Assembly: GCA_965240465.1 (NCBI GenBank)
Contig: OZ251219.1
Span: 1-64,000 of the forward strand
Direction of reading: 5' to 3'
DNA length: 64,000 nucleotides
Source of the DNA: a bacterium
Lineage (GTDB): Bacteria; SAR324; JACQKK01
The translations under genes and the position numbers were made by a program. Below are positions 2,443-62,608 of the stretch, piece after piece. Within the stretch, counting starts at the first letter, position 1. Each line of letters opens with the position of its first letter. Below the pieces are notes generated by a model. The model was not told the DNA's origin, did no database searches, and saw only the letters and a program-made list of their open reading frames with translations.

Positions 2443-2517
<75 letters not shown>

Positions 2518-2521
2518 CTAC

Positions 2522-3340
2522 TCATTGTCTTACCAGCTTGTGGATTTCTTGCAGCCTTTTAAGCAATGGAGGCAAAGAGCTGAAGGGCAACATATTGGGA
2601 CCATCACAGAGGGCATTTTGGGGGGTTTCATGGGTTTCCATAAATATTCCATCAGCACCTGCTGCTACCGCGGCTCGGGCGATGGTTGCTACGAATTGCC
2701 TCTCGCCACCCGATTGCCCCTTGCTGCCAGAAGGTTGCTGTACCGCGTGAGTAGCATCTATCACCACTGGAAAGCCAAATTCCTGCATTATGCTGAACCC
2801 ACGCATATCCACTACCAAGTTGTTATACCCGAACATGTAGCCTCGCTCGGTGATAATGATCTTCTCATTGCCTGTGGAAGCCATTTTCTCTACCGCATAA
2901 GCAGCATCGCGAGGAGAAATAAATTGCCCCTTCTTCCAATTGATCACCTTCCCAGTACGAGCAACTTCCACCAAAAAATCCGTTTGACGTGCCAAAAAAG
3001 CGGGAATCTGCAAGATATCTAACAGTTCGGCTGCTGGTTCAATCTCTTCAAAACGATGAACGTCTGATAGCAATGGTAATCCCGTTTGCTGACGAATGTT
3101 TTGGAATATCTCGCGTGCTGATGCTAATCCTGGTCCCCGAAAGCTTTCTAAAGAAGTGCGGTTGGCTTTATCATAAGAGACCTTGAAGGCAAAGGGTAGT
3201 TGCAATTCGCCACATATTTGCTTTAGTCGCTGGGCAAATGCCAGCGTTTGTCCAGGATGCACGGAGTCCTCTATGACATCGGGGCCTAATATGCCAAAAA
3301 ACGGCAACGACTTATTCTTAAGGCTGGGTAGGTCAAACAT
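2522..3340 (-). CDS. kdsA: KDO8P synthase
   Basis: FKVSYDKANRTS, QIPAFLARQT, KKGQF, ERGYMFGYNNLVVD, DATHAVQ, CDGPN. Confidence 0.95.
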   Translation of the reverse strand: MFDLPSLKNKSLPFFGILGPDVIEDSVHPGQTLAFAQRLKQICGELQLPFAFKVSYDKANRTSLESFRGPGLASAREIFQNIRQQTGLPLLSDVHRFEEIEPAAELLDILQIPAFLARQTDFLVEVARTGKVINWKKGQFISPRDAAYAVEKMASTGNEKIIITERGYMFGYNNLVVDMRGFSIMQEFGFPVVIDATHAVQQPSGSKGQSGGERQFVATIARAAVAAGADGIFMETHETPQNALCDGPNMLPFSSLPPLLKRLQEIHKLVRQ

Positions 3341-3378
3341 GGGTCTCTTTTCAGCTTGCGTGCTATAGTATAGGGATT

Positions 3379-4371
3379 ATGAGTAGGATTTATCAACAGA
3401 ACAAGGAAAAGATAAAATCCCTAGTGTGTAAAGCCCTAGAAGTGGAATACGCTGGAATTGAAGCCCTGATAAATCGCTTGGATGATGCAGTAGTAGAAGC
3501 GGTCAAGCTGATACTTGATTGTCAAGGCAAGGTTGCCGTACTGGGAATGGGAAAATCTGGTCATATTGGACGCAAAATAGCTTCTACCCTAGCTAGTACT
3601 GGCACTCCTGCTTTTTTTTTGCACCCATCAGAAGCCCTGCATGGAGACCTCGGTTCGCTAACCCGTAGTGATGTTGCCCTAATTCTTTCGCACTCGGGAC
3701 AGACCGAAGAAATATTGCGACTACTGGGGCAAATTAAACGAATGGGTATTCCCTTCATCGCAATGACGGGCAATCCCGAGTCCGAACTAGCCAGAAAAGC
3801 CAACCTTCATTTGGATATCTCCGTACCTGAAGAAGCATGTCCGCTCAATTTAGCACCTACAGCCAGCACCACGGCTACTCTTGCCCTAGGCGATGCTCTG
3901 GCTGTTTGTCTGCTGGAAATAAAGGGCTTTCAGCCCCAAGACTTCGCTAGACTGCACCCTGGAGGCAATCTGGGAAAGCAGCTGGTCACCACCGTAGCAG
4001 ACATCATGGATACCGAGTACATCCCCCAAGTTTCCGAACAAACTTCCGTGCAGGATTCCGTATCAGAAATCCACCGCGGTCATTATGGCATCACTGCCAT
4101 AACCGATGCCAAGGGGCAGCTTTTAGGAGCGTTTTCATTGGGCGATTTACTAAGGCTTCATCACTCGCAACCTAAGCTACGGTTTTTAACCGAGCCCATC
4201 GCCCGACACCTGAACCGAAATCCTCAGAGAATCAACTCTAATGCTCTGGTAGCAGAAGCTCTATTTCTGATGGAAACCAAGCATATTCGCTGTGTATTTG
4301 TTTGCGACTCAGGGCAGAAACTACAGGGCATGCTGGGAATTTATGAATCACTCAAAGCAATTGACTATTAA
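3379..4371 (+). CDS. kdsD: Arabinose-5-phosphate isomerase (KpsF/GutQ, SIS+CBS)
   Basis: GMGKSGHIGRKIASTLASTGTP, EALHGDLG, EACPLNLAPTASTT, FARLHPGG. Confidence 0.93.
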   Translation: MSRIYQQNKEKIKSLVCKALEVEYAGIEALINRLDDAVVEAVKLILDCQGKVAVLGMGKSGHIGRKIASTLASTGTPAFFLHPSEALHGDLGSLTRSDVALILSHSGQTEEILRLLGQIKRMGIPFIAMTGNPESELARKANLHLDISVPEEACPLNLAPTASTTATLALGDALAVCLLEIKGFQPQDFARLHPGGNLGKQLVTTVADIMDTEYIPQVSEQTSVQDSVSEIHRGHYGITAITDAKGQLLGAFSLGDLLRLHHSQPKLRFLTEPIARHLNRNPQRINSNALVAEALFLMETKHIRCVFVCDSGQKLQGMLGIYESLKAIDY

Positions 4372-6206: not shown

Positions 6207-7407
6207 TTATCGCAAAATAGGATATTCACTGTCGCTGCCGAAATCCCAATCGTTAGCGTCCCAGCCATCATAATTTCCATTATCGCAAACAGGATTGCTA
6301 GGGTCATTGGCGTTCCAAGTTCCACCCACGGAAGTACAATCTCCAGAACTGGAGGGAACTACCTCAGTTTGTGCTTTTAGATGAACCTCTGACTTGGCAG
6401 TACCCTTTATGTTTTTTGTCTCGCCTGCCAGAGTGGCACTGTCGTTGTAGTAACTAGCAGTTGTAACACCACTGATGTTGCTTCCTACCAAACCACCTAC
6501 CTTGTCCATCCCGCCATTGCCGTCAACAGCACCACTGGAATAGCTCTTCCCAATAGAGCCATGACGGTAGATCCCATACTGTAACCACCAATTACGCCCC
6601 ACCAATCCGCCTACCTCATCATCGCCTTCACCACCGCTGACCGCACCACTGGAATAGCCGTTTCTGATACTGCTGGCAGACCGCCCTATCAATCCACCCA
6701 CCAGATCATCACCAGCACCACCACCAACAGCAGCTCCACTGGCAGAACTCTTTTGCAACACACCACCATAAGATTCTCCTATCAATCCACCCACCGAGTC
6801 ATTACCAGCACCACCACCGACAACACCACTGGCAGAACTGTTGTGCAAATGACCTATATCTACATACCCCACCAGCCCGCCTATAAGATCATTTCCATTC
6901 CCACCATTAACAATGCCGCTGGCAGAACTGTTTCCAATGGTACCATGATAAGAGTATCCGATCAGTCCACCAACTAAGCTATAGCCATTCCCTGAGGTTA
7001 TTTCTAGGTTGGAAGATACATTATCAACATTGCTATTAGTCTCCATTTCACCAGCCAGGGCACCAATTGGGATGTAACTAACTGTACTAGTGAATGACTA
7101 TATAATCAACATCTTCTGTGGCTGCATTGGATGCTGTACCAGTAGCAGTTGAATATTCAAAGCTAACACTTTCACCTTTAGCAACTGTTCTGTTTAGCCG
7201 TACTACAAAATTGAAATCTATATTTCCAGAATCCCCTTCTGCAAGGGATATATCCGAGAATGCCACTATTGTCAGAGAACCATTTGCTTTCGCGCTGCTA
7301 CCGCCAGAACTTACTCCGCTGTTACTACCTCCTCTGCAAGTACTCAGCAACAGAGCCACCAGTAGCAGAGCTACGCTGCGAAGCGATAAAACAATTATGT
7401 TGTTCAT
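6207..7407 (-). pseudogene. Split surface lipoprotein: signal/lipobox plus truncated Calx-beta-like domain (7087..7407), out of frame with GLUG-repeat C-terminus (6207..~7095)
   Basis: LLLSTC lipobox; SLAEGDSG...FVVRL...FEYSTATGTAS...DY; repeated VGGL(I/V)G; C-terminal WDFG..EYPIL; frame break near 7095. Confidence 0.65.
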
Positions 7408-8516: not shown

Positions 8517-9986
8517 TTAACCTTCATAGGCGGGCAAGCCATATTTCTCAGGACATACAAGGTGATTATCGTTAAAGGCACGGGCATAATAAGAGTATCC
8601 TTCTGGTATCTTCATATCATCCAGAATTAAGCAGGCACTTTTAGCTAAAACTAATTCTTCAATATCTTCGTCAATGCTAGCAACGCGGGGTTTAACTGGA
8701 GACACATATCGGGTAGGTGAATTAATTTTTGCTAAAAAGATGCTCCCCGCAAAACCGTAGACCAGAGGTTGAACAGCAATCCCTTTTTCCCTTAGTGGCT
8801 TAAGAGCTCTTAAAAACCGATGCCTATCTGAGTCCGACAAGTTGTAGCCATCTTTAATCACTTTGGTATAATTATTTTCTACATGATGAAATGAAATTTG
8901 AAAGCAAATTATAGCAATAATAAACGCAATGGTGGGTCTATAAGACATCCACTGGTTAAGAGGCAATATCTTCTTCTTAGGCATACCAATAAACAATGCT
9001 AGGGTAGCTAGGCTCGCTAGTCCAACCAGAGAATAATGTCCATAACCGTTACCGCTGATAGTTGCAAAAAGAATGTCTGTCCCAAATATCAGTAAAAGTA
9101 TCTGTGTTAATGGTTGGCGAAATCCTTGGAAAGATCTTAATCCGCCTGTAACATGAAAAATAAGAGCTAATGATAAAGGACTTCTAAGAATAATTTTTAA
9201 GTTGTGAAACACCCCATCAATTCTTTTTTCTATTCCGATGTAAGACGTGTATTGCAGATTGTATTGTACGTATGTTTTCCAAAGTTCATGAAGATACCCA
9301 TTAACGTACGCATGAAGTAAAAAACTTCCCACCACAGCAAAGAAACAAGCTGTAGTGGCTAAAGCAGCCATTAGGACGGAGCGGTATCCAGAATGTTTGA
9401 ATGCCTGTACTAATAGAATTACAAATAGGATAAAACAACCTCCCCCATTGTTAATACGGGTGGTTACTGCCACACCACCAGCTACTCCTAGCAAAACAGC
9501 AGTGGTGATTAATAAAGAAAGTGAATCTTTATTTCCGTACCATAAACAATAGTAGCAATATCCCAGTAACTGAAGCGGGAATATCCAGCTCTCAGTCAAG
9601 TTTCCTCCTTGGAAAAGCAACAGGTAACTGGAGACTATAAGGAGCAATAGCAGGGAATGACCCCACTTATAAGCACTTTTTGGAGCTAGCTTTAATGCCC
9701 ATAATAAGGCAGTGATGGTTAACAATGATTCCAACATAATAACTCCCCATGCCTCATTTCCAGATATAAGCAATCCCCAAGCATTAAGATAGAAAAGCAA
9801 AGGTCCCTTGTGATCCCAGATATCTATGTACGGCAAGCCTCCTGTATTAATCACCCAGCCAGCATGCATAAAAATGCCTGAATCCCAGATGACCACCATG
9901 CTAGCTAATACTCCTAAAAAAGGAAGCGTGACTATCAGCAAATTCACCAAACTCGGGATCGCTACATATTTTTTGTACTTAAACAT
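8517..9986 (-). CDS. GT-C (ArnT/PMT-like) membrane glycosyltransferase, copy 1
   Basis: DSGIF...G...GGLPYIDIWDHKGP, GGNLTE, GYGHY; many TM helices; start placed at ATG aligning with copy 2. Confidence 0.75.
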   Translation of the reverse strand: MFKYKKYVAIPSLVNLLIVTLPFLGVLASMVVIWDSGIFMHAGWVINTGGLPYIDIWDHKGPLLFYLNAWGLLISGNEAWGVIMLESLLTITALLWALKLAPKSAYKWGHSLLLLLIVSSYLLLFQGGNLTESWIFPLQLLGYCYYCLWYGNKDSLSLLITTAVLLGVAGGVAVTTRINNGGGCFILFVILLVQAFKHSGYRSVLMAALATTACFFAVVGSFLLHAYVNGYLHELWKTYVQYNLQYTSYIGIEKRIDGVFHNLKIILRSPLSLALIFHVTGGLRSFQGFRQPLTQILLLIFGTDILFATISGNGYGHYSLVGLASLATLALFIGMPKKKILPLNQWMSYRPTIAFIIAIICFQISFHHVENNYTKVIKDGYNLSDSDRHRFLRALKPLREKGIAVQPLVYGFAGSIFLAKINSPTRYVSPVKPRVASIDEDIEELVLAKSACLILDDMKIPEGYSYYARAFNDNHLVCPEKYGLPAYEG

Positions 9987-10028
9987 GCTTATTTTCTTCT
10001 TCAATAACAATTATTTATGAACATTACC

Positions 10029-11501
10029 TCAACCCTTATAGGCGGGCAAGCCATATTTCTCAGGACATACAAGGTGATTATCGTTAAAGGCACGGGCATA
10101 ATAAGAGTATCCTTCTGGTATCTTCATATCATCCAGAATTAAGCAGGCACTTTTAGCCAAAATTAACTCTTCAATATCTTTGTCAATGCTAGCAATGCGG
10201 GGTCTATATGGGTAAAACACGTATCGGGTAGGTGAATTAATTTTTGCTAAAAAGATAGTCCCCGCAAAATCGTAGACCAGAGGTTGAACAGCAATCCCTT
10301 TTTCCTTTAGTGGCTTAAGAGCTTCTAAAAATCGGTGCCTATCTGAGTCTGGCAAGTTGTAGCCATCTTTAATCACTTTGGTATAATTATTTTCTACATA
10401 ATGAAATGAAATTTGAAAGCAAATTATAGCAATAATAAACGCAATGGTGGGTCTATAAGACATCCACTGATTAGGAGGCAATATCTTCTTCTTAGGCATA
10501 CCAATAAACAATGCTAGGGTAGCTAGGCTCGCTAGTCCAACCAGAGAATAATGTCCATAACCATACCCACTGATAGTTGCAAAAAGAATATCTGTCCCAA
10601 ATATCAGTAAAAGTATCTGTGTTAATGGTTGGCGAAATCCTTGGAAAGATCTTAATCCGCCTGTAACATGAAAAATAAGAGCTAATGATAAAGGACTTCT
10701 AAGAATTATTTTTAAGTTATAAAACACCTCATCAATTCTTTTTTCTATTCCACTGTAAGACGTGTATTGCAGATTGTATTGTACGTATGTTTTCCAAAGT
10801 TCATGAAGATACCCATTAACGTACGCATGAAGTAAAAAACTTCCCACCACAGCAAAGAAACAAGCTGTAGTGGCTAAAGCAGCCATTAGGACGGAGCGGT
10901 ATCCAGAATGTTTGAATGCCTGTACTAATAGAATTACAAATAGGATAAAACAACCTCCCCCATTGTTAATACGGGTGGTTACTGCCACACCACCAGCTAC
11001 TCCTAGCAAAACAGCAGTGGTGATTAATAAAGAAAGTGAATCTTTCTTTCCGTACCATAAACAGTAGTAGCAATATCCCAGTAACTGAAGCGGGAATATC
11101 CAGCTCTCAGTAAAATTTCCCCCTTGGAAAAGCAATAGATAACTGGAGATGATAAGGAGCAATAGCAGGGAATGACCCCACTTATAAGCACTTTTTGGAG
11201 CTAGCTTTAATGCCCATAATAAGGCAGTGATGGTTAACAACGCTTCCAGCACAATAACCCCCCAAGCTTCATTTTCAGATATAAGCAATCCCCAAGCATT
11301 AAGATAGAAAAGCAAAGGTCCCTTGTGATCCCAGATATCTACATACGGCAAGCCTCCTGTATTGATCACCCAGCCAGCATGCATAAAAACGCCTGAGTCT
11401 GTGCCAATTGGTAGGCTAAGTAATATTCCTAAGAAAGGGAGCGTGAGTATCAGCAAATTTACCAAATTTGTGATTGCTACACCTTTTCTGTACTCAAGCA
11501 T
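10029..11501 (-). CDS. GT-C (ArnT/PMT-like) membrane glycosyltransferase, copy 2
   Basis: Same motifs; near-identical tandem paralog of copy 1. Confidence 0.75.
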   Translation of the reverse strand: MLEYRKGVAITNLVNLLILTLPFLGILLSLPIGTDSGVFMHAGWVINTGGLPYVDIWDHKGPLLFYLNAWGLLISENEAWGVIVLEALLTITALLWALKLAPKSAYKWGHSLLLLLIISSYLLLFQGGNFTESWIFPLQLLGYCYYCLWYGKKDSLSLLITTAVLLGVAGGVAVTTRINNGGGCFILFVILLVQAFKHSGYRSVLMAALATTACFFAVVGSFLLHAYVNGYLHELWKTYVQYNLQYTSYSGIEKRIDEVFYNLKIILRSPLSLALIFHVTGGLRSFQGFRQPLTQILLLIFGTDILFATISGYGYGHYSLVGLASLATLALFIGMPKKKILPPNQWMSYRPTIAFIIAIICFQISFHYVENNYTKVIKDGYNLPDSDRHRFLEALKPLKEKGIAVQPLVYDFAGTIFLAKINSPTRYVFYPYRPRIASIDKDIEELILAKSACLILDDMKIPEGYSYYARAFNDNHLVCPEKYGLPAYKG

Positions 11502-14784: not shown

Positions 14785-14820
14785 CATTTGTTCTATCATA
14801 GCTATGGATTCCTTATCTTT

Positions 14821-15888: not shown

Positions 15889-16152
15889 CTACCAATTAGG
15901 AATTTTGCTTTTCATTTTGGGTTTTTTACGTAACCTCCTTAAAAATTCTTCCTCAGAAATGCTCAAATTCTTGATGATATTTTTCACCTTTGATGGTGGA
16001 ACTCTTATAGAGTGATACCTTAGTAAAATAGGCCTCTCACCATGTTTGTCAAAACAATAACTGGATTTATCAATTCTCCCTCTAGCAGAAAAACCACAGC
16101 TAATAATAACCCTTTCTATTTCTTTGGCTTTTATCCCAGATAATCTTGCCAT
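15889..16152 (-). CDS. HicA-like toxin (atypical)
   Basis: MARLSGIKAKEIERVI..CGF...H...VKNIIKNLSISEEEF pattern; basic 87 aa; lacks GSH. Confidence 0.6.
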   Translation of the reverse strand: MARLSGIKAKEIERVIISCGFSARGRIDKSSYCFDKHGERPILLRYHSIRVPPSKVKNIIKNLSISEEEFLRRLRKKPKMKSKIPNW

Positions 16153-16541
16153 TAAATATGAGCCCTTCCGTCAGCACGAACCCTGTCAATAATAGGAGCC
16201 ATAGGGATTTTTTCTATTTCGGCTTGATTCTCTGTTTTTTCTGGAATGTAAGGTGGAGGGCTAATTTCTTTCCCTTTCCTTTCCCAGCCCAAAGATTCCA
16301 AAACAAAATCAAGTTTTTCCAGTTCAATGCATGTTACTAGAAAAAGATATAGATCTTCTGTGAAGTTTTTTATCGCCTCTTCTTTTGTTTCGCCATAAGA
16401 CACCAAGTCAAAAGCCTCGCTTTTAACTATAGTAGCATCTTCCTCTTTATAAATAGACACCTTCAACTCTTTGATGGCTATATTTGGTGGAATGTTTTTT
16501 GTTTTTTCGAAGACTACTTCTGTGCTGCTCATTTTTTTCAC
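16152..16541 (-). CDS. HicB-like antitoxin
   Basis: IYKEE...FDLVSYGETKEEAIKNF motif; stop/start overlap with HicA-like gene. Confidence 0.7.
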   Translation of the reverse strand: MKKMSSTEVVFEKTKNIPPNIAIKELKVSIYKEEDATIVKSEAFDLVSYGETKEEAIKNFTEDLYLFLVTCIELEKLDFVLESLGWERKGKEISPPPYIPEKTENQAEIEKIPMAPIIDRVRADGRAHI

Positions 16542-17113: not shown

Positions 17114-17129
17114 GCAAGGCAAAGAAGGT

Positions 17130-52065: not shown

Positions 52066-52134
52066 AGAACGTATTTCTTTATATTTATTCTAATAAATTA
52101 TTTTTGTTTAGCATAAATTTCCATAAGAAATTGG

Positions 52135-52941
52135 CTATGATTTAGCATTAGCTGCCGAAATTTTTAACCTCTTTAGTACGGGTTCCCATTCTTTGGCTCT
52201 ATGTTCCTGTTGCCCAAGTTGATATGAGTTTATCAATTTGGCCAGCACTTTGCGTTTTTGGGGATATTCAGGATAGTTTTTCAGCAAAAACAAGTAGCGA
52301 TTTGCGGCAGCCGCGTATTGATGACGCTTAAAATAAAAATCTGCTACCAGTTGTTCATGTCCTGCCAAGATGTGCCGAGCTCTATTATAGTAGTCCGTGA
52401 CACTTCCTTGGTAGCTGCTGTTGGGGTAGATAAGAAAGAATCTTTCTGCATCTTGGACAATATTTTTATATGGTTTTATGTTGCGGCTTACATTTGTTTT
52501 TCGTCTGAAAAACCCCGCCAAGGTTTGCTCGTATTGTACCCGTATCAGGTTGTAATAGATCAAGTGGCTTCGTTCACCATAGGGTTGCAAAATGGTGACC
52601 CGCCGATAGTTGATCTCTGCTTCATCCCATTTTTCTAGCTTTTCGTTAGCTTGGGCTAGTCGTAGATGAGCATACACTGCTTGCAAGGTGCTGGGTTCTT
52701 TATCCACCACAATGGTGTATTTGCGAATGGCATCAAGGTAAAATCCGTCGTCAAACAAGCGATTAGCTTCTAGATAAAGATGGCGTGTGTTTTTGTTTTT
52801 ATCTGCAGTTACTTCTCCTTCTGGTTCCAGCTGCGATTTGGTAGCTCCTTCCGTGGGTTGTGCCCACAATGGCTGTGTCCACAATAGTTGTGTCACTAGC
52901 AAGCAGGAAAGCAATAATAGACCACCGACAATTCTACTCAT
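52135..52941 (-). CDS. bamD: Outer-membrane assembly factor BamD-like
   Basis: YPNSSY...LAGHEQLVADFYFKR..Y.AAANRY..LL..YP. Confidence 0.8.
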   Translation of the reverse strand: MSRIVGGLLLLSCLLVTQLLWTQPLWAQPTEGATKSQLEPEGEVTADKNKNTRHLYLEANRLFDDGFYLDAIRKYTIVVDKEPSTLQAVYAHLRLAQANEKLEKWDEAEINYRRVTILQPYGERSHLIYYNLIRVQYEQTLAGFFRRKTNVSRNIKPYKNIVQDAERFFLIYPNSSYQGSVTDYYNRARHILAGHEQLVADFYFKRHQYAAAANRYLFLLKNYPEYPQKRKVLAKLINSYQLGQQEHRAKEWEPVLKRLKISAANAKS

Positions 52942-53041
52942 TAAAAGATCTCGTTGTTATTCTTATTGACGAATTTTGGTTCACCATTTTAGCTTGACTA
53001 GCCTTGGGTTAAAATTGTCATTGCTGGTAGAAAGCACTATG

Positions 53042-54199
53042 CTAGCCCCTCCTACGGGTGAAAGTACTAGCGGTGGGAGGTGAAAAATCACGCACTTTCT
53101 TGAGCTTCAAAAATCCATCTTGTTCCGAGGAACAGCGGACACGAAACACGTTTCCTCGCATATCAAGGGTACTTCCTCCCCGAATAGAACCAGACAGAGT
53201 GTGTACATCAGCATGGATAATGGCCTCAGTGTTATTATCTAGGTCAACTTGCAGGCGTCCAATTTGGCCATTGAGCACTAGTTTGCACTGTCCGCGTGCG
53301 TGTACTTCGGCATTACCGCTCAATTCTATCACACGAGCATAAGCCTGCTGCATGCGAAGCGTTAGTCCACAGAGTTCAGCGGCTACCAGCTGACCGCCAG
53401 GGAGTAAATTGGCACTTAATTGACTATTCAGATCACCAATGGTTAGTGGTCTACTGAGGTCACACACTTCTACTGCAATTCCTGAAGGTACAGTGATTAG
53501 AAGGTTAACGGGCAATTGATTGCATTCTAGCAAGAATTTTTCGGCACTGGGAAGGTTGTTTTGCGACCCCATTCTTTCTAAAGTCCGTCCCAATAGGCCT
53601 GCCCCAGTAAACTCTCTGCCACTAGAAAAAGAATTCTTTGGGACAGGGGATAAACGCTTCAAATAATGTTGCGGACCTTCCATTTCCAGCTGCACAATGT
53701 GTCTGGCGATCTGCTGAGAATGAACACCTTGTAGCTTAGCCAAGGTACTGTTCCACAACCGTAGTGCCTCCGTGGGATTGATGACAGTCTCGCCTCCTGG
53801 GGCACTCAGTACAAATACCCCATTGCGCGGCAATGCCAAGGCACTGATATGCACCATATCTTTACCACTACTCGCGGTAGATTTTGTTGCTGTCCTTGTG
53901 CCTTCTTTTCCACTGGTATTCCGCGACCATTCTGATTTGTGAACAAAACCAGTACTAGAGCCAAAGCCTGCTGTCCCCCTTACTCCTCCTTCGTTATGAA
54001 AATTGAGCACTGTTTCATCATAAGCACGGCGTTTATCGGCATCCTGCAAAGTTTCATAGGCCTGCTGTACTAGACCAAACAACACCGCGTCTCCACCCGC
54101 ATCAGGGTGCAACTTCTTGGCTAAATTACGCCAAGCGGACTGAATCTCATCTGCCGAAGCCGAAGTAGATACCTGTAACAATTGATAATAATTATTCAC
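53042..54199 (-). CDS. J-domain protein with uncharacterised C-terminal beta-rich region
   Basis: NYYQLL...EI..AWR.LAKKLHPD...AYETL.D..KRRAYD. Confidence 0.8.
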   Translation of the reverse strand: MNNYYQLLQVSTSASADEIQSAWRNLAKKLHPDAGGDAVLFGLVQQAYETLQDADKRRAYDETVLNFHNEGGVRGTAGFGSSTGFVHKSEWSRNTSGKEGTRTATKSTASSGKDMVHISALALPRNGVFVLSAPGGETVINPTEALRLWNSTLAKLQGVHSQQIARHIVQLEMEGPQHYLKRLSPVPKNSFSSGREFTGAGLLGRTLERMGSQNNLPSAEKFLLECNQLPVNLLITVPSGIAVEVCDLSRPLTIGDLNSQLSANLLPGGQLVAAELCGLTLRMQQAYARVIELSGNAEVHARGQCKLVLNGQIGRLQVDLDNNTEAIIHADVHTLSGSIRGGSTLDMRGNVFRVRCSSEQDGFLKLKKVRDFSPPTASTFTRRRG

Positions 54200-54266
54200 C
54201 GTATTTTCTCATCAATATTTTCCGCCAGAAATACCTATGATCAGTTATAGGATACACACTATTCTA

Positions 54267-55379
54267 CTAATCATCCAAATCATGTTGTTGCCGTAATCTA
54301 CTAAAAGCCCACTGCGGTTCCTGACGCAACCAGTGGTCAATTAAAACCAAATTCACCATCGCTTCCACTACCGGTACCGCACGAGGTAGCACGCAGGGAT
54401 CATGGCGTCCTTGCCCTCGCAATAACACCTTTTCTCCTTTGCGATTAACTGTCTGCTGTTCTTTAGCGATGGTAGAAGTAGGCTTGAAAGCTACCCGCAA
54501 CAGGATCGGTTCTCCATTGCTAATTCCCCCCTGTATTCCCCCAGAACGATTGCTTGCAGTGCCAATTCCCGCAGGCTTTTTCACATACACATCGTTGTGT
54601 TCTGAGCCTAGTTGAGTAGTTGCCGCAAATCCCAGACCAAATTCCACTCCACGGGTGGCAGGTAGAGACATTAAACCCTTAGCTAAATCCGCCGTTAGCT
54701 TGTCAAAAACGGGTTCTCCCAGCCCCGCAGGACAGCCGCGTACAACCACTTCTATAACACCACCAACGCTATCACCCTGCTTTTTTACCTCCATAATATA
54801 AGCCTCCATCTCCCGTGCAGCCTTGGCATCGGGACACCTCACCACGTTGCTTTCAATTTGCTCACCCGAAACTCGTTCCACATCTACCCGGCTTCGCAAC
54901 TTATGAACCTCTGAAACCCAAGCTAAGGTCTCCACTCCGTGCAAACTTAATAGTTTCTTAGCCACCGCACCAGCAGCTACCCGAGCAACAGTCTCACGTG
55001 CACTAGCTCTACCTCCACCCTGCCAATTGTGTATTCCATATTTTTGCTCATAACTAAAATCGGCATGGCTAGGACGATACCGTTCCCTAAAAATCTTATA
55101 ATCCTGTTGCCGAGCATCGCCATTGCGTACCAACATAGCCAAAGACGTCCCGAGCGTGTGCCCTTCAAACACTCCGCTGACAATCTCCACCTGATCCTGC
55201 TCGGAACGCTGAGTGGTTATCTGACTCTGGGACGGACGCCGCCGCTTCAACTGCTGCTGAATATCATTTTCAGTTAAGGGCAAGCCCGCTGGGCAACCTT
55301 CTACCACCACCCCGACCGCAACCCCATGGGACTCCCCCCAGCTGGTAATCTTGAAAAATTTGCCAAAAGTATCACCCAC
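54267..55379 (-). CDS. aroC: Chorismate synthase
   Basis: [43 protein letters not shown]. Confidence 0.97.
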
Positions 55380-56362: not shown

Positions 56363-56683
56363 ATGACGACTATATATTCTTCTTCTGAATCTGATGTTTC
56401 TTCTAACAAGAAATGTGTGTACATAGTTGTTTATGGCAGGGTGCAGGGTGTAGGTTATCGGGAATTTGTGTGTAAGGTTGCCAAACATTTTCAATTGACA
56501 GGATGGGTACACAACATGCCTGATGGACGCGTAGAGGCAGTGGTACGCATAAGTCATCAAATACTTCCTAAATTAGTTACCTTCCTAAAACAAGGAACTC
56601 CCTCTTCTAAAGTTATTCGGGTATCAACCAAAGAAATTTCATCCCTCAGTTGCCCGATCCGCGGCTTTGATATTATTACCTAA
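56363..56683 (+). CDS. acyP: Acylphosphatase
   Basis: GRVQGVGYR, GWVHNMPDGRVE; start re-placed inside ORF 56063..56683. Confidence 0.88.
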   Translation: MTTIYSSSESDVSSNKKCVYIVVYGRVQGVGYREFVCKVAKHFQLTGWVHNMPDGRVEAVVRISHQILPKLVTFLKQGTPSSKVIRVSTKEISSLSCPIRGFDIIT

Positions 56684-57804
56684 CCCGTCTTGGCCCGAAA
56701 TCTGGTTGCAGAAAAAGGTTTGATTACCGAGGGACATTCATTATCCAACATCAGGCTTACCAAGCTGTGGGCGGTGATGGGTGCATTCAGGATACCATTC
56801 CGATAATGACCCGTTGCCACAAAAAAACCAGGGGCAATCCGACCCACAATAGGAGCATTATCCCGACTACCAGGTCTTAACCCTGCCCAAACTTCTTCCA
56901 GTGGCCACTCATCTACCCTGGGGAAAATTCTCCGTGCCTCCCGAAGCAAATCAAACAACACTCCCGCACTGGACTGTTTATCAAAGCCTCGTTCTTCCAC
57001 TGAAGCCCCTATCAATACCCTGCCATCCTCCCGCGGCACCAAGCAGTACCCATACCTAACCCCATGCAGTACACGCTTAGGAATCTCGTGCTGGGGTGCT
57101 CGCAAACACAACATCTGCCCCTTGATAGGCCGCACTGGCAAATCCACCAAAGAATCTACCCCCTTAATCATTCTACTCCAACAACCTGCTGCCAATAGCA
57201 CCTGTTTTCCTAGTAATACCTCGCCTTCCACCTGAACTGCAGGGGCTTCATCTCCCTGAGGTAATAGCTCCTGAACCTCACAATGCTCCCGTAATTCTCC
57301 TCCAGCCGATAAGAATGCTCGCCTTAAAGTAGCCATCAAACGCCTATTGTCCACCTGATAATCATCCACCTTTATCCCCGCTACCACCCGAGGGGACAAC
57401 CCATCCTCGCACATCTGTGCCTCCTCTCCTGATAACCATCGCACCTGATCTCGCTGCCCCTGCTGACGCTTAAATATCCGCTCCAGTTGCTGACGCTCAT
57501 CGGCATCCAATGCCACTTGCAACGTTCCCTCATTGCGAAACCCTACCCGTTCTCCGCTGGCAGCCTCTAACTCGCGCACGAAATCTGGGTACAACCTCAA
57601 ACTAGCCAGACCCAATTGATAAACCTCTTCTCCGTCCACCTCCAGCTCACATAGCGGCGACAACATTCCCGCCGCCGCCCACGAGGACTCCTGCCCCGTC
57701 CCACCCCGCTCTAATATCAATACCCGCTCCTTACGCCGTGCCAACAACCATCCCACCGACAGCCCAATTATTCCCCCTCCTATTATCAAGACGCCCCGAT
57801 TCAT
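56680..57804 (-). CDS. thiO: Glycine oxidase ThiO
   Basis: IIGGGIIG, SWAAAGML, RPIKGQM, WAGLRP, ATGHYRNGIL. Confidence 0.85.
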   Translation of the reverse strand: MNRGVLIIGGGIIGLSVGWLLARRKERVLILERGGTGQESSWAAAGMLSPLCELEVDGEEVYQLGLASLRLYPDFVRELEAASGERVGFRNEGTLQVALDADERQQLERIFKRQQGQRDQVRWLSGEEAQMCEDGLSPRVVAGIKVDDYQVDNRRLMATLRRAFLSAGGELREHCEVQELLPQGDEAPAVQVEGEVLLGKQVLLAAGCWSRMIKGVDSLVDLPVRPIKGQMLCLRAPQHEIPKRVLHGVRYGYCLVPREDGRVLIGASVEERGFDKQSSAGVLFDLLREARRIFPRVDEWPLEEVWAGLRPGSRDNAPIVGRIAPGFFVATGHYRNGILNAPITAHSLVSLMLDNECPSVIKPFSATRFRAKTG

Positions 57805-57865
57805 GCTCTGTTACTCAGCTAGATAAAGCCTCTGCCCGTTACCAGATATATCCTACACCAGAAAG

Positions 57866-59089
57866 CTATTCAAATAGCCAATACCAACCGTAAGCCAACA
57901 AAACAGCTGGAACAGCACTATAAACAGTCGCCACCAGAGAGGCTTTAGGAGCCACTGCCAAGGCAGGGAAGAGGGCATCACCATCATTGCAGATGGCGTT
58001 TCCCAGTTGAGCTGAGAACGGTATCAAACCATTGACATACAGGGTAGTCACTACCACTTGCGGTCCGCAACCCGGTATAAAGCCTAAGACAATTCCCATC
58101 AAAGGCACCAGCGGCGCCCACAAACTAAAGAACTGTTCCAATTGAACTCCGCTGAAAAACAAAGCTAGTTCATAGAGTAAAAACGCCAAAACTATCCACT
58201 TGGTAACAAAATTGGTATCATTTGCAATTCTACTAATAGTAGATCCATATTTCCATTTAACTACTAATTCTCTATGAGCATGGCAACAATGTGGCTCACT
58301 AGGAGTTTTTTGCAGGGGCAAGATATCCCACATCATAAGACTCAAACTAGCCCCAAAAACACCCACCACTAAACGAGGAGAAAAGCCCTCAATTCCCAGC
58401 AGGGCATCAGCATCTAGCTGAAAGGCATCGGCTAAGCCCAGCACTACGCCTGGTATCAATATTAACATCCAAGCCCAGCCAAACAGAGACATCGGGGCTA
58501 CTAAATTTCTATGTTTATGGCAAAGCAACTTTCCCGTTTTCTTGCTACGTAGAAAATCAGGCCCATGGATGGCATCCACCAGCATGCCACTGATACTCCC
58601 CACCACAATGCTACCTGCAAATAATCCTAATGCCACCAACGGTTTGCGTGCCAACAGCAAAAATGCAGCATCTCCCATAGTAGATATTAACACTGCCACC
58701 AAAGCCCCAAAACTAATGCCACCCTTCACATATTGAGTCACCACCACAATCGCCCCGCCACAGCCAGGCAAAGCCCCCGCCACCGCCGCAATCACAGGCT
58801 GAACCCGACTGTACCGCTGCAGTAAACCAGCAACGTCCAAGCCTAGCCAATCCTCCAAAATGTAAAACAACGCCAAAGTGGCTGCCACAAACACCACCAC
58901 CGACAAATAGGCATCCCTAAGCACCCACATCAACAAGATACGAGTCTGAGGGTTAACCAATAAACCCACCATAATCACGTACAACAGCCACTTTCCCCAA
59001 TTTACTGACTTTACGGCAACCAGAACCCCCTCGAACAAGCATAGCAACCTCGTCCAAGGTATTTTTAATTTCAGAATCAATTCGGTCAC
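57866..59089 (-). CDS. Putative manganese/metal transporter (DUF2899-like)
   Basis: Twin PGCG motifs (ALPGCGGA, FIPGCGPQ), STMGDAAF, NDGDALFP; His/Cys-rich loops. Confidence 0.8.
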   Translation of the reverse strand: MTELILKLKIPWTRLLCLFEGVLVAVKSVNWGKWLLYVIMVGLLVNPQTRILLMWVLRDAYLSVVVFVAATLALFYILEDWLGLDVAGLLQRYSRVQPVIAAVAGALPGCGGAIVVVTQYVKGGISFGALVAVLISTMGDAAFLLLARKPLVALGLFAGSIVVGSISGMLVDAIHGPDFLRSKKTGKLLCHKHRNLVAPMSLFGWAWMLILIPGVVLGLADAFQLDADALLGIEGFSPRLVVGVFGASLSLMMWDILPLQKTPSEPHCCHAHRELVVKWKYGSTISRIANDTNFVTKWIVLAFLLYELALFFSGVQLEQFFSLWAPLVPLMGIVLGFIPGCGPQVVVTTLYVNGLIPFSAQLGNAICNDGDALFPALAVAPKASLVATVYSAVPAVLLAYGWYWLFE

Positions 59090-59226
59090 GACTATCTGCT
59101 TATCTGTCTTTTAATCCATCTACAATATCACTAGTACTTAGACTTAATCTTTCAGGTTTGTAGAACTAACAGCATCTCAAGGCTATACCAAACTACAAAT
59201 CAATCTAATAGAACATCAGTCTAAAT

Positions 59227-59245
59227 AATAATGAATATCATTCTC
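59227..59245. promoter_or_regulatory. Fur-like box upstream of the metal transporter
   Basis: AATAATGAATATCATTCTC, 15/19 to GATAATGATAATCATTATC, with extra overlapping hexamers. Confidence 0.65.
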
Positions 59246-59364
59246 ATTACCGTCCCATTGTCTACCACGCCTTACCTACTTGTCAATAAGGATCACAAAA
59301 TTATTTTTGAAAACAACTTTTAACAGTCGCTAGAAAAAGCAGACTCTTATCCAAAGGCCAACGC

Positions 59365-60465
59365 CTAACCACCATACATTAGTCTCTGACGCTTAAAATG
59401 ACGTAGTGTACCGCGTTCTCGTACATCACCAGCTTTAAGAATCACAGCATCAGTAGCACTCTTGCCATCTGGGCTGACCAGCGTACCTCCCACCGCTAAA
59501 CGCCAAGCAGGAATCACGGGTATCTGATATTCAACCCCATTAACTTCCAAAAGTAGCGGCGGCAAAACTTGCCCGCTAGCTTCGTCGTATATTTTCTTTC
59601 CCAAAGCCATAACCACGCCACTAGCAAGCACTGCACCTTCCTGTACAATCCCTGCCACTTCACACATGGCTCCAATCCGTACTTTGTTTTCAACTATGGT
59701 TGGCATGCGTCCTGAAGGCTCTAACACCCCTTCTAATCCTGTACCCGCACCCAATTTCACCCCCAGACCTACCTGAGTTGCAGAAGCCACCCGTACTCCC
59801 GTATCTACCATTACTCCGTCGCCGCCAATCCAAGCCCCTATGTTTATAAATGCCTGACTCATGACCACTGTCCCTGCCCCCAACCAAGCCCCCCGCCGTA
59901 CCACCGAACCAGGCAAATAACGAACCCCACCTTCACGAAAACGAGTAGCATCCCAGCATGCAGTCTTCAAAGGAATCTTGTCCCAATAGCCACCCTCCAT
60001 ACGGGTATTCTCATGAGTAGAAAAATAATTCAGTACCCCTTGCATCACCCATACTTGAGGTTGCCACTCCCCATCTACCTTCTCTGCACAACGAACCCGA
60101 CCATCATCCATTAAATCAATTAAATCTTCTGTATCCCCCGCCGAACCCTCAAGCTTATTCAACCTCTCCACCACTCCCTCACTCCCCTCTACCATCTCTA
60201 CTTGCACACCCTTAAAAATCTCTTCTGAAATCAACAAACTCGCTATCGCGTCCTCCTTTTCTAAACACCTCCGCTCAGCCGACCCCAAGTCACCCAATAG
60301 TGACCAATTCAAGCTACACTCTCCATCATCACCCTCCACTGATAGCAACGACAATATTCTTAACACCTCGCCATTATCACCCAAATTAGGCAACACCGCG
60401 TGCGTTTCATCACCGATTCTCAGACGCATTAACACAATCTGTTTCCAATTTTTAAACTTTGCCAT
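59365..60465 (-). CDS. dapD: Tetrahydrodipicolinate N-succinyltransferase with N-terminal extension
   Basis: G.VR.AEK..GEW...WV..G.L.YF, YWDKIPLK, VRRGA, INIGA, MVDT, GVLEP. Confidence 0.8.
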   Translation of the reverse strand: MAKFKNWKQIVLMRLRIGDETHAVLPNLGDNGEVLRILSLLSVEGDDGECSLNWSLLGDLGSAERRCLEKEDAIASLLISEEIFKGVQVEMVEGSEGVVERLNKLEGSAGDTEDLIDLMDDGRVRCAEKVDGEWQPQVWVMQGVLNYFSTHENTRMEGGYWDKIPLKTACWDATRFREGGVRYLPGSVVRRGAWLGAGTVVMSQAFINIGAWIGGDGVMVDTGVRVASATQVGLGVKLGAGTGLEGVLEPSGRMPTIVENKVRIGAMCEVAGIVQEGAVLASGVVMALGKKIYDEASGQVLPPLLLEVNGVEYQIPVIPAWRLAVGGTLVSPDGKSATDAVILKAGDVRERGTLRHFKRQRLMYGG

Positions 60466-60546
60466 TTAACTTTATGTACCTATTTTACTATCCAAAAGAA
60501 AGATTGAAATATTTCTTACAGAAACACTTTCCCTGCATGAAACTGT

Positions 60547-61434
60547 TTAGGCAATACCCATAAAAATAGTTTTTGAGCTGGGGGTAATTTGGAATTGGTG
60601 CTGAGGTGGGATTGCTTCGCCATCCAATTGGGCTGCCAAGGGAGTTTCTGAGTTGATAGTACAGTAATTTCCCAGTTGATATTGGGAAAATTTGGTAGTG
60701 TTTTGTTTGAGGGGTACAAAGATTTTCAGTAGCATAGCAGTAAGATGTCCTAAAGGGGCAGCTACAAATACCAATTGGGGTTTAAGCAATCCTGCTTGGG
60801 AATGGATAATAAAAGGACCGGCGTATCGTTTAGCACGGCAAGCTATCAACCAGACAGATTGTCGTTGTGGAGAAGGGGGGCTGGAAGGCTGGGCTGATTT
60901 TGTGTGAACCTGCCAAGAAAATGATATCTTGGGAGACAAAAATTCTCGTAAACCCTGCAAGACATAGCTACCCACTCCCAGCCATTGTTTTTGCCATCTC
61001 CTTGTAGCATGCACTACGCGGGCATCGTATCCGAAGCTAGCCATCAGTAAAAAGGCACGCCCGTTCAGGCTACCAGGACGCACCTTAATAACCCTCATAC
61101 GAGCAACGGCGGGAGCTATTTTTCGGGTCTGTAAGGGAATGTTTAGTTCTCGTGCCAGAACATTTGCTGTTCCTCCGGGCAAACATATCAGCGGAAGTTG
61201 ACGCCCCAGCAGTCCATTGGCAGCTTCATTGAATGAGCCATCTCCCCCCATCACCGCCACCCTGGTTACACCCCTGACCTGTTGTACCAACTCCCTCAAG
61301 TGCCCTGGATATTTGCTTTCCTGCACCCGAGTCTGAATCCCTTCCGCATGTAGTCCTCTCAAGATGGCTTCTAGACGTGCAGAAGAATACCTCCCCGCTT
61401 TTGGATTATACAGTACCGCCCAGTTCTCCATCAT
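60547..61434 (-). CDS. Diacylglycerol/lipid kinase family (YegS-like)
   Basis: NPKAG, GGDGSFNE, LPGGTANVLA, G.DA, QLDGE. Confidence 0.9.
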   Translation of the reverse strand: MMENWAVLYNPKAGRYSSARLEAILRGLHAEGIQTRVQESKYPGHLRELVQQVRGVTRVAVMGGDGSFNEAANGLLGRQLPLICLPGGTANVLARELNIPLQTRKIAPAVARMRVIKVRPGSLNGRAFLLMASFGYDARVVHATRRWQKQWLGVGSYVLQGLREFLSPKISFSWQVHTKSAQPSSPPSPQRQSVWLIACRAKRYAGPFIIHSQAGLLKPQLVFVAAPLGHLTAMLLKIFVPLKQNTTKFSQYQLGNYCTINSETPLAAQLDGEAIPPQHQFQITPSSKTIFMGIA

Positions 61435-61648
61435 TTCCCTAAAACTTAGTGATAGCCCTTACAAAACATACCCGTGCTCTTCGTAATTTATGGATATGTC
61501 TACTCAGACTTCTCAACCCTATTTAGCCTAGCATGTATCATTTAGTGCTGAATAATGGTAGAGTTCGCTTTACTTTCGGTTGCTTGTTCTAATTTTTTTG
61601 CTGTTTTTTGGTTTCTTTTTTTGGCAATTTCCGTTTTGCTATTTAATC

Positions 61649-62608
61649 ATGCCCGATGCTCTAGCATCTCAATTTGTTCAACCTAAGTATGCGTCTACTG
61701 TTGCCAAGGAACAGGCACGGGTTTTATTTTTGTGTCAGCAACAGATTGTGTTGGCCCTGGAAGGTATTGACGGAAGTCGTTTTAAGCAAGATTTTTGGCA
61801 ACGGAGTGGTAGCACAAGCGGGAGTGGTCTCAGTTGTGTGTTGGAGGAGGGGGAAATTTTTGAAAAGGGAGCCGTGTTGTTTTCATCTGTACAGGGTGAG
61901 AAGCTACCTAAGACAGCTTTAACAGGCTCAAGTGGACAGAGTACATTGGAAGAGAGTCCTTTTTTTGCGACTGGATTATCGTTGATTCTTCACCCTCACA
62001 ACCCTTATGTACCCGCGGTTCATCTGAATGTTCGTTACTTTGAGACAAGCAATTATTGGTGGTTTGGCGGAGGCATGGATCTAACTCCTTTTTATCCTTT
62101 CACCGAAGATTGCATTGAATTTCATCAGGCAGCCAAATGTGCCTGCGATAAATTTGATCCTAACTGGTATGCTCGTTTTAAGGCTTGGTGCGATGAATAT
62201 TTTTATCTTCCTCATCGCAAAGAATGCCGAGGAATAGGCGGTATTTTTTTTAATCATCTTCGTCCCCGTAGTCAGGAGCTGGGCTTAGAATTTTTACAGT
62301 CTGTCATCAAAGCATTTTTGCGTGCTTATCCTGCCATTGTGAAGAGGAGATCTCCCCTTTCTTATGGCCAGTGTGAACGCGATTTTCTGACATACCGTCG
62401 CGGGCGTTACGTGGAATTCAACCTTCTATATGACCAAGGTACTTTGTTTGGGCTACAATCTGATGGGCGAGTAGAATCAATCTTCATGTCCATGCCCCCG
62501 CAAGTCAGCTGGCGTTACAACTGGCAACCACCACCAAACAGCCCTGAGGCTAAACTCACCAAGCATTTTCTGCAGCCTCAGGACTGGGCTAATCAAAAAC
62601 TGCCCTAA
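61649..62608 (+). CDS. hemF: Oxygen-dependent coproporphyrinogen III oxidase
   Basis: HPHNPYVPAVHLNVR, WFGGGMDLTP, RGIGGIFF, RRGRYVEFNL.YD.GT.FGL. Confidence 0.95.
   Translation: MPDALASQFVQPKYASTVAKEQARVLFLCQQQIVLALEGIDGSRFKQDFWQRSGSTSGSGLSCVLEEGEIFEKGAVLFSSVQGEKLPKTALTGSSGQSTLEESPFFATGLSLILHPHNPYVPAVHLNVRYFETSNYWWFGGGMDLTPFYPFTEDCIEFHQAAKCACDKFDPNWYARFKAWCDEYFYLPHRKECRGIGGIFFNHLRPRSQELGLEFLQSVIKAFLRAYPAIVKRRSPLSYGQCERDFLTYRRGRYVEFNLLYDQGTLFGLQSDGRVESIFMSMPPQVSWRYNWQPPPNSPEAKLTKHFLQPQDWANQKLP

Follow-up and report, generated by a model that had tools for sequence, protein, structure and literature searches.

Most genes and operons in the 64-kb window studied here (the whole stretch from position 1 to 64,000 of contig OZ251219.1, read on the forward or + strand, from the SAR324-lineage assembly GCA_965240465.1) begin G-rich and turn C-rich along their coding strand, and the kilobase-scale sawtooth of guanine-cytosine (GC) skew observed on the + strand follows the gene map. 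With moderate confidence, we lean towards a cause that combines a transcription-linked, strand-asymmetric substitution bias, changing with distance from the transcription start, with replichore skew. The DNA analysed from the source genome comprised the window only; as controls, 80 loci around mutS from other species, among the matches listed, were taken through an identical pipeline, with subsets of 79 loci for the slope and 73 loci of at least 8 kb (other bacteria and archaea) for the standard deviation (SD) of the skew.

The swings, which a preliminary description of this DNA had reported from hand counts on 60-nt lines, are real: they appeared again in unbiased 1-kb and 400-nt windows, and nine of the nine hand counts were exact. 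The + strand skew ranged from -0.544 (34501-35500) to +0.329 (44001-45000) in 1-kb windows, and from -0.59 (60001) to +0.36 (20401) in 400-nt windows. The SD of the 400-nt skew was 0.222, binomial sampling alone giving 0.076; in the 73 control loci it averaged 0.087, with a highest value of 0.172, and the excess over sampling was 0.209 in the window versus a mean of 0.044 in the control loci. Sharp steps were defined by a 400|400-nt contrast of at least 0.45, the 95% maximum |D| from a permutation null being 0.47. Seven upward jumps reached that threshold (at 491, 19521, 35501, 38201, 55661, 60501 and 61541), all of them at most 120 nt from a gene boundary. The jumps listed beforehand at 16.8 and 44.0 kb are visible as rises but fall below the threshold. 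The sawtooth form itself was recovered in part: upward jumps with falls between them are present, but so are five sharp downward steps of at least 0.45 (17701, 21481, 24621, 56791 and 60941), and a free piecewise-linear fit mixed its slopes, 11 of 17 being negative, with 11 of 16 jumps upward. The sawtooth shape is imperfect and holds only partly. A clean sawtooth was tried as a description and rejected, 6 of the 17 slopes of the free segmentation being positive and 5 of its 16 jumps downward.

The third-position slope was negative in 36 of the 44 core genes, with z < -2 in 20 and z > +2 in none; for the window it was -0.73±0.05 per kb, versus 0.012±0.107 in the 79 control loci (minimum -0.40). 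When open reading frames (ORFs) were called blindly, 31 of the 37 ORFs of at least 250 aa dropped from the 5' third to the 3' third, with a mean first-minus-last-third difference of +0.22 (Wilcoxon p=1.9e-7) that was alike in the three thirds of the window (+0.23, +0.21 and +0.22); in the 80 mutS loci of other species the mean differences ran from -0.12 to +0.08. An analysis of fourfold-degenerate sites, which had been called for earlier, found that both a position term (-1.25 logit per unit length) and a strand term (-0.36) were needed in the core genes (n=3246), the two together giving a difference in log-likelihood (dLL) of 99.0 and the single terms 51.0 and 50.8. The asymmetry follows the coding strand in either gene orientation, as the slopes from a gene bootstrap were -1.25 (interval -1.86 to -0.70) for + genes and -1.51 (-2.56 to -0.50) for - genes, both excluding 0; an orientation-by-gradient interaction was nominally significant per site and was lost in the gene bootstrap (P=0.66).

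The anchoring to genes was examined with a shift test, in which + strand G versus C at all genic G/C sites was modelled from orientation and from orientation by relative unit position. The real gene map, with transcription units set from gene gaps and, in this test, partly from the skew resets themselves, gave a dLL of 202.8, versus a mean of 21.4 (sd 17.5) and a maximum of 75.4 over 200 circular shifts. A 5'-to-3' fall on the coding strand is reverse-complement symmetric, so the + strand skew falls for genes of both orientations, and upward jumps result at convergent, divergent and tandem unit boundaries alike: at 19.5 kb because two C-rich 3' ends meet, and at 35.6 kb because two G-rich 5' ends part. 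The equal sign of the jump at these two junctions, which had been taken as a sign that the skew is independent of gene orientation, is therefore what a coding-strand fall predicts; independence holds in + strand coordinates only, the pattern itself being anchored to the gene map. Equally, the argument that a simple gene gradient was excluded by + strand genes with C-rich starts gave way to the gene-map fit (202.8 against a maximum of 75.4), the C-rich starters being largely a product of the strand offset described below.

Pfam identified ordinary Gram-negative genes on both strands, including kdsA, kpsF, dsbA, xth, rnpA-yidD-yidC, mutS, ogt and iPGM, and also lon, yajC-secDF, manC, dprA, bamD, aroC and hemF. 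The units, spacers and island to which the text refers are, in order along the window:

581-2053, - strand: gene for a DUF6056 protein, a single-gene unit; fall by thirds from +0.51 to -0.07, all-site logit slope -1.47 per kb.
11504-13627, - strand: HD-GYP/GAF gene; thirds +0.10, 0.00 and -0.25, third-position slope -2.07±0.42 per gene length.
13873-15762, + strand: xth and a FliN-like gene; thirds -0.28 to -0.29, C-rich from the outset.
16830-19516, + strand: rpmH-rnpA-yidD-yidC unit, starting at the 16.8 kb rise; G-rich over the first ~0.9 kb, then C-rich.
19517-19619: convergent spacer between the stop codons of yidC and of a 217-aa ORF; jump of +0.54 at 19521.
19620-23059, - strand: mutS and the overlapping 217-aa ORF; the clearest tooth.
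23060-27974: low-GC accessory island, GC 0.25-0.30, without a gradient.
31901-35529, - strand: ogt, a 257-aa ORF, a TPR gene and terB, four tightly packed or overlapping genes with one continuous fall.
35530-35718: divergent spacer between ogt and iPGM; jump of +0.77 at 35501.
35719-38188, + strand: iPGM and an overlapping IMP-cyclohydrolase-like gene; one continuous fall, slope -0.75 per kb.
38189-38239: 51-nt tandem spacer from the IMP-cyclohydrolase-like gene to a DUF805 gene; jump of +0.61 at 38201.
38805-41267, - strand: lon; thirds +0.24, +0.01 and -0.14, third-position slope -2.45±0.40.
44064-47145, + strand: yajC-secD-secF unit; continuous fall, thirds from +0.25 to -0.41, slope -0.54 per kb.
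50842-55379, - strand: aroC, a DnaJ-domain gene, bamD and dprA; shallow fall from +0.27 to -0.15, slope -0.18 per kb.
56680-60465, - strand: THDPS-like, ArsP2 and DAO genes; each falls and stays G-rich, with partial resets at the spacers (+0.10 and +0.31).
60466-60546: 81-nt tandem spacer from a diacylglycerol-kinase-family gene (DAGK) to the THDPS-like gene; the largest jump of the window, +0.92 at 60501.
60547-61434, - strand: the DAGK gene; a full swing in 0.9 kb (+0.27, -0.01 and -0.33), slope -2.09 per kb.
61580-62608, + strand: hemF; thirds +0.26, +0.02 and -0.08.

The fall was clearest in mutS, whose sixths at all positions read +0.51, +0.46, +0.26, +0.06, -0.20 and -0.36; its third positions ran from +0.83 to -0.38, over a span of +0.83 to -0.50, its fourfold halves were +0.67 and -0.41, and the sixths of mutS in 77 homologues were flat (0.02-0.07, sd ~0.08). 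In the ogt-terB unit the thirds of the genes went from between +0.47 and +0.66 down to between -0.26 and -0.08, with a step at 33594 from +0.44 to -0.22. The thirds of iPGM (+0.18, +0.11 and -0.24) were continued by those of the IMP-cyclohydrolase-like gene (-0.27, -0.31 and -0.56), and the best step in the rpmH-yidC unit lay at 17732, from +0.30 to -0.20.

At fourfold sites the change is an exchange of G for C. From the first to the last fifth of the genes G went from 0.228 to 0.141 and C from 0.199 to 0.298, with A at 0.252 and 0.264, T at 0.321 and 0.298 (T exceeding A throughout) and GC content at 0.43-0.44; the adenine-thymine (AT) skew moved only from -0.12 to -0.06 while the GC skew moved from +0.07 to -0.36. 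Two-fold codons shifted likewise, C/(C+T) in NNY codons rising from 0.29 to 0.48 and G/(A+G) in NNR codons falling from 0.54 to 0.28. All eight fourfold codon families and every neighbour context shifted alike (skew change -0.30 to -0.43), which argues against a tRNA, a motif or methylation as the cause. Codon positions 1+2 shifted in the same direction at under half the strength (-0.53 versus -1.2 to -1.4), and the proteins carry the mark: first thirds were enriched in Gly, Val, Asp, Glu and Cys, and last thirds in Pro, Ile, Gln, Asn and Thr. In aligned columns of MutS, the z score of amino acids with G-first codons fell from +1.7 to -3.1, and that of Pro+Gln+His rose from -1.1 to +2.9. The protein bias that had been claimed between Ogt and the product of 37355-38188 was likewise found, G+V+E+R making up 0.38 and 0.14 of the two proteins, and P+Q+T+H 0.08 and 0.29.

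The unit over which the skew falls appears to be larger than a single reading frame, and it behaves as a transcription unit would, since the skew is continuous over tight junctions, resets at spacers, and is shared by spacers and their flanks. Tight or overlapping operon junctions in the core DNA had little or no upward reset (range -0.39 to +0.22 at all positions). The values were -0.10 from ogt to the 257-aa ORF, +0.07 from that ORF to the TPR gene, +0.09 from the TPR gene to terB, +0.04 from iPGM to the IMP-cyclohydrolase-like gene, +0.22 from mutS to the 217-aa ORF, -0.20 from xth to the FliN-like gene, -0.24 from rnpA to yidD and -0.39 from yidD to yidC. Continuity also extended over some spacers of 60-67 nt (secD to secF, -0.06; aroC to the DnaJ-domain gene, +0.02). 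Strong resets were found at the 81-nt spacer from DAGK to the THDPS-like gene (+0.98 at all positions, +1.25 at third positions), from the FliN-like gene to rpmH (+0.62), and at the 51-nt spacer from the IMP-cyclohydrolase-like gene to the DUF805 gene (+0.61). In a small sample (n=13), spacers between co-directional genes had a skew of the same sign as the coding DNA on their flanks (Spearman 0.62, p=0.024), with G 183 versus C 123 where the flanks were G-rich and G 11 versus C 21 where they were C-rich, and the skew of the 5' flank correlated with that of the gene's 5' end (r=0.46, p=0.017). Promoter-like sites, which are weak pointers, were located at three of the rise or reset spacers (16768-16797, + strand; 38196-38224, + strand, TTGACA-17-TAGCAT with TG; 59286-59257, - strand), just upstream of rpmH, the DUF805 gene and the ArsP2 gene, respectively.

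These junctions bear on a translation-linked codon choice, in effect a very long 'ramp' with U- and G-ending codons early and C- and A-ending codons late. Such a ramp would produce the NNY and NNR shifts and would end, as the C-richness does, at the stop codon. We nevertheless consider it very improbable: no reset occurs at the start codons of overlapping or tightly coupled genes, codon positions 1+2 and amino-acid composition shift as well, and untranslated spacers within units match their flanks. The scale is also one of kilobases, whereas the known codon effects near gene ends are local and AT-favouring (PMC6892556).

Within genes the third-position slope was close to -1 logit per kb across length classes (-1.54, -0.82, -1.09 and -1.02), and the offset-corrected skew of the 3' end was lower in longer genes (rho -0.42, p=0.004) and farther from the unit start (rho -0.45, p=0.0017). 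Between a step and a linear fall, a step was clearly better only for mutS with the 217-aa ORF (+12.9) and for rpmH-yidC (+8.5), the other units lying between -1.9 and +5.1 (similar or slightly better). The size of the downstream spacer had no relation to the C-richness of the 3' end (rho 0.007, p=0.97).

This last result weighs on a two-ended model, in which bidirectional or spurious promoters in AT-rich spacers act at every boundary and the 3' ends of genes receive a start-proximal effect from antisense transcription. Bidirectional promoters have reportedly been found in bacteria, and the model would suit the reverse-complement symmetry of the pattern, the similar swing of units of 0.9-3.6 kb, the AT-richness of the jump spacers (GC 0.38), and the similar spectrum of the flipping component and the strand offset, in both of which the AT change is ~15-20% of the GC change; weak + strand promoter-like sites at 60429-60486 even point into the 3' end of the DAGK gene. 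We hold it to be improbable all the same. Apart from the indifference to spacer size, 3'-end C-richness peaked in genes separated by just 2 nt from the next one, as in the HD-GYP gene, whose 3' end is very C-rich (offset-corrected third-position skew -0.86), and in RCC1a (-0.89); 3'-end skew tracked the distance from the unit start; and the fourfold AT skew showed no flip. Promoter-like sites exceeded shuffles in two of four scans only, namely 20-40 kb, a scan that takes in the AT-rich low-GC island (64 versus 42.7±5.9), and 60-64 kb (11 versus 5.9±2.8).

Instead of mutation, selection acting on the transcript or the RNA:DNA hybrid could be at work, favouring G-rich, C-poor RNA early in the unit and the converse late. 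In one variant Rho, with its preference for C-rich, G-poor RNA, would be kept off the early transcript and loaded late; in others, hybrid or R-loop stability, or polymerase speed, would be graded along the unit. The near-pure exchange of G for C, with A, T and GC content constant, is what selection on C minus G is expected to leave. Terminator-like hairpins were at the level of shuffles in all four scans (22 versus 18.8±4.2, 25 versus 18.0±4.2, 24 versus 19.7±4.7, and 2 versus 4.0±2.0), so factor-dependent termination may matter here. We judge selection unlikely, though to be taken seriously, because a G:C ratio of ~9:1 at mutS third positions (+0.83) and altered residues in conserved proteins would be hard for weak selection to achieve at thousands of sites in a lineage with genomes of 1.6-1.7 Mb. 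Moreover, the stop codon, the point at which a termination signal should serve best, is where the C-richness ends, and the gradient spans whole units, not just their ends.

Besides the gradient, the window carries a constant excess of C on the + strand. In the gene bootstrap the strand term at fourfold sites was -0.41 (interval -0.75 to -0.05), + strand genes being the more C-rich, and by thirds of the window it was -0.32, -0.34 and -0.38. Core intergenic DNA had 796 G and 995 C on the + strand (skew -0.111, p=2.8e-6), and mobile stretches had a skew of -0.005. The genes with C-rich starts all lie on the + strand (xth, the FliN-like gene, a 343-aa ORF, Sel1, kpsF and SLT), and those that never become C-rich all lie on the - strand (ogt, the 257-aa ORF, the THDPS-like gene, ArsP2, DAO and aroC); the constant offset added to the gradient largely explains both groups.

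An offset of one sign over 64 kb is what would be expected of one passing replication fork within a single replichore, if replication is its source, and it speaks against dozens of local origins. The preliminary description had proposed the latter, with many scattered sites of initiation and variable termination. With one such site at each jump, this would amount to a kilobase version of the human N-domains. The upward jumps, the roughly linear falls with slopes inversely scaled to length, and a flipping component with the G-with-T sign of classical leading-strand skew are all of the kind that this proposal would produce. It is nonetheless scarcely credible in view of the gene map, which the jumps follow: the fall runs through overlapping genes and resets at some spacers only, sharp downward steps are also present, and the offset keeps one sign, in intergenic DNA as well. 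The checks for an origin and for motifs at the jump flanks came back empty, there being no Bac_DnaA match from Pfam among the 54 ORFs of the window, no perfect match to the DnaA box TTATCCACA and no cluster of near matches in the window, and no 6-8-mers shared beyond shuffles by the 12 AT-rich jump spacers. One-mismatch matches to the box numbered 26 and were scattered (17.9±4.1 expected). The fallback offered in the same description, another positional strand-asymmetric mutational process, fits the anchoring to the gene map and the continuity through overlapping operon genes.

MutS, Lon and iPGM of the window were also compared with sequences from other organisms. Among the matches listed, the nearest mutS in species-representative genomes was 47-49% identical. 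In a protein collection the nearest MutS relative was 59% identical and all others at most 50% (at most 48% among full-length matches). The MutS of the window lies on a contig of 1,599,138 nt and that of the 59% relative on one of 1,724,560 nt, which also carries the relative's Lon (72% identical). The relative was judged from its MutS and Lon proteins, by means of a polarity index defined as Gly+Ala+Val+Asp+Glu minus Pro+Gln+His in the first third minus the last third. For MutS the index was +0.250 (z 6.9) in the window and +0.188 in the relative, versus -0.001±0.036 (maximum 0.092, n=117) in the others. For Lon the relative ranked 1 and the window 2 of 117 (z 4.0 and z 3.5; others -0.049±0.032, n=115), and for iPGM, a + strand gene, the window ranked 1 of 115 (z 4.0; others -0.063±0.042, n=114); the relative's iPGM was not among the 120 matches listed. 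As the polarity of both MutS and Lon is present in the window and in the relative, the trait appears to be inherited within a small-genome clade (1.6-1.7 Mb) whose nearest named neighbours are SAR324 and 'Lambdaproteobacteria' metagenome-assembled genomes (MAGs). The most negative slope of any control locus, -0.40±0.09 per kb, belonged to L009, from a Candidatus Peribacteria MAG. Its profile shows a weak effect only, which may be noise or a milder version of this polarity in a lineage unrelated to that of the window.

What the data show directly is that the gradient is anchored to genes and units, acts at synonymous, non-synonymous and non-coding intra-operon sites, is absent from the other bacteria sampled and is present in one relative. 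From these observations we infer transcription as the anchor, mutation rather than selection as the force, and replication as the source of the offset. Under the substitution bias that we favour, the sawtooth would be the sum of two strand asymmetries. The first would be a lineage-specific polarity of the unit, the coding (non-template) strand being G-rich near the start and C-rich with distance, in such a way that each new unit start, or each meeting of two units, would give an upward jump on the + strand. The second would be the constant + strand excess of C, the + strand being the lagging strand of one ordinary replichore. The bias would stem from damage or repair, the balance of which would change the farther a site lies from the transcription start, and would build up over evolutionary time, with purifying selection filtering it at non-synonymous sites. 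The order of the effect at synonymous, non-synonymous and untranslated sites is as expected for mutation filtered by selection. Five low-GC genes, three in the accessory island and two at 8517-11501, had no position effect when pooled over their 189 fourfold G/C sites; at low power, the data are consistent with the claim that AT-rich islands lack the pattern, and the absence of the gradient from recently acquired genes fits a slowly accumulating bias. Also counted in favour of mutation are the strength of the gradient even in mutS, described as weakly expressed, and the small genomes, in which weak selection on thousands of sites should be inefficient. More tentatively, and with considerable doubt, the clade may have an undescribed transcription-polar mutational regime in which the damaged or unrepaired strand switches from the non-template to the template strand along the unit, possibly through a lost or altered repair, R-loop-handling or topoisomerase function.

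Several points weigh against the transcription-linked bias. We know of no bacterial transcription-linked process that reverses its sign along a unit, and the base spectrum, an exchange of G for C with A and T flat, is odd for simple cytosine deamination; at constant GC, that exchange could equally reflect selection on the G and C of the transcript. C-richness ends at the stop codon, the 3' flanks having a skew of +0.10, which suits a coding-linked cause. Units of 0.9-3.6 kb show similar total swings, which are compatible with relative as much as with absolute distance; at the unit level relative position fits better than absolute distance, within genes the slope per kb being about constant. 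Eight of the 44 core genes have no fall in third-position slope. The rule is broken by xth and the FliN-like gene, a unit C-rich from the outset, whose third-position slopes were not significant (+0.90±0.64 and +0.19±0.62), and removal of the offset left 5' skews of -0.31 in xth, -0.32 in GLUG720, -0.16 in Sel1, -0.02 in the FliN-like gene and +0.05, near zero, in the 343-aa ORF (kpsF, +0.19). The three-parameter model accounts for an R2 of 0.31 of the 400-nt skew with a residual autocorrelation of 0.58, and amplitudes and levels particular to single units remain outside it.

Other features of the window were recorded alongside the main units. The rpmH ORF (L34, 44 aa) occupies 16830-16964, and the yidD ORF overlaps rnpA by 64 nt. 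The rpmH-rnpA-yidD-yidC cluster, which often adjoins dnaA, is found here without dnaA beside it. Right after the yidC stop codon, 19538-19618 holds a G-tract (G4-A-G6-A-G6) followed by three copies of a 17-nt tandem repeat. The IMP-cyclohydrolase-like gene (PF07826; 37355-38188) overlaps the end of iPGM by 35 nt; its family is, we assume, best known from archaeal PurO and thus unusual in a bacterium. The low-GC island contains a SocA/Panacea-domain antitoxin-like gene (23808-24305) and the gene for an 824-aa protein with HSDR_N and N6 DNA methylase (N6_Mtase) domains (25197-27671). Between the FliN-like gene and rpmH, two abutting low-GC ORFs of 87 and 129 aa (15889-16541, - strand) give the impression, by their arrangement, of a toxin-antitoxin pair; Pfam gave no match to the 129-aa ORF at 1e-5.

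Downstream of the HD-GYP gene, two tandem membrane-protein genes on the - strand (8517-10010 and 10029-11501; 497 and 490 aa, 92% identical, no Pfam match) have a GC content below that of their neighbours. The central third of their DNA alignment is without differences, and gene conversion is possible; the 87 differences showed no directional G/C difference (net G +8, C -3). Genes for repeat proteins are frequent, with RCC1 repeats at 27975-29444 and 42584-43834, Sel1 repeats at 41566-42480 and GLUG motifs at 6207-7046 and 29646-31808; their third positions are C-rich with little gradient. These proteins, together with the 1.6 Mb contig, suggest a host-associated life. An identical 17-nt hairpin-forming sequence occurs at 41703-41719 and 41751-41767, 48 nt apart, inside the Sel1-repeat gene, and probably reflects its repeat structure. 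Rfam matched two tRNAs and nothing else in the window. An 86-nt direct repeat (99% identical; 47465-47550 and 48213-48298, 748 nt apart) covers the 3' part of tRNA-Ser (47419-47505), its second copy lying just before a 319-aa ORF (48295-49254). The pair resembles the termini of a small element inserted in this tRNA gene.

GC skew is usually interpreted in terms of replication; here the gene-anchored component is several times the replichore one and would mislead origin prediction. Resets may let the limits of operons be read from sequence in an uncultured organism, and the pull of the amino-acid composition of conserved enzymes away from that of their homologues bears on annotation, on homology searches and on phylogeny, where composition can drive artefacts. 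Should the cause be mutational, the lineage brings to light, in measurable form, a polarity of mutation or repair associated with transcription that stays hidden in model bacteria. If the transcription-polar regime were true, transcription starts and operon limits could be read off base composition alone, an N-to-C compositional polarity would be imposed on the proteome, and the clade would offer a natural system for measuring the polarity of mutagenesis. In kind, the phenomenon would be a transcription-associated strand asymmetry; what makes it interesting is how large it is, that its sign reverses, that it affects proteins and that it is apparently inherited in a clade.

The asymmetry known from transcription in bacteria is small and keeps one sign along a gene. 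It reportedly enriches the non-transcribed strand in G and T, as attributed to Francino and Ochman and to Beletskii and Bhagwat. The gradient described here resembles it in being tied to the transcribed strand, in affecting synonymous sites and in making the coding strand G-rich near the unit start, but differs in that the sign reverses within the unit, as from +0.83 to -0.50 at mutS third positions. The constant + strand excess of C (~0.11 in intergenic DNA, 0.36-0.41 logit at synonymous sites) resembles the ordinary skew of a replichore, unlike the sawtooth, which changes sign every 1-5 kb and follows genes. The skew N-domains of the human genome are of megabase scale and linked to fork polarity, with jumps at initiation zones; they share with the sawtooth the upward jumps and the roughly linear falls between them, whereas here the scale is that of kilobases and the jumps are tied to transcription-unit boundaries and the gene map.

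Open-access papers and preprints yielded no account of a bacterium in which GC skew reverses within genes. The 'intragenic GC skew' of PMC2216083 is a per-gene value and not a gradient. The codon effect of Zahdeh and Carmel (2019, PMC6892556), a preference for AT-rich codons in 91 species, is confined to the vicinity of the gene end; it has in common with the gradient that synonymous choice depends on position in the gene, but the gradient leaves GC content unchanged and trades G for C along the entire unit. The closest described analogue is the opposite GC skew at the two gene ends of unicellular fungi (McLean and Tirosh, PMC3315797), for which those authors put forward an adaptive argument of nucleotide supply; they took an AT skew largely uniform along genes as evidence against simple C-to-T deamination. 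The fungal pattern shares with the present one a within-gene change of sign, an effect at fourfold and non-degenerate sites, an amino-acid bias between the gene ends and a near-uniform AT skew. The polarity is reversed: fungal genes favour C at the 5' end and G at the 3' end, those of the window G at the 5' end and C at the 3' end. Fungal skew also reaches into the 3' untranslated regions, unlike the 3' flanks here, which are not C-rich; and it belongs to eukaryotic Pol II genes, whereas in these bacterial operons the fall continues across the genes of a unit.

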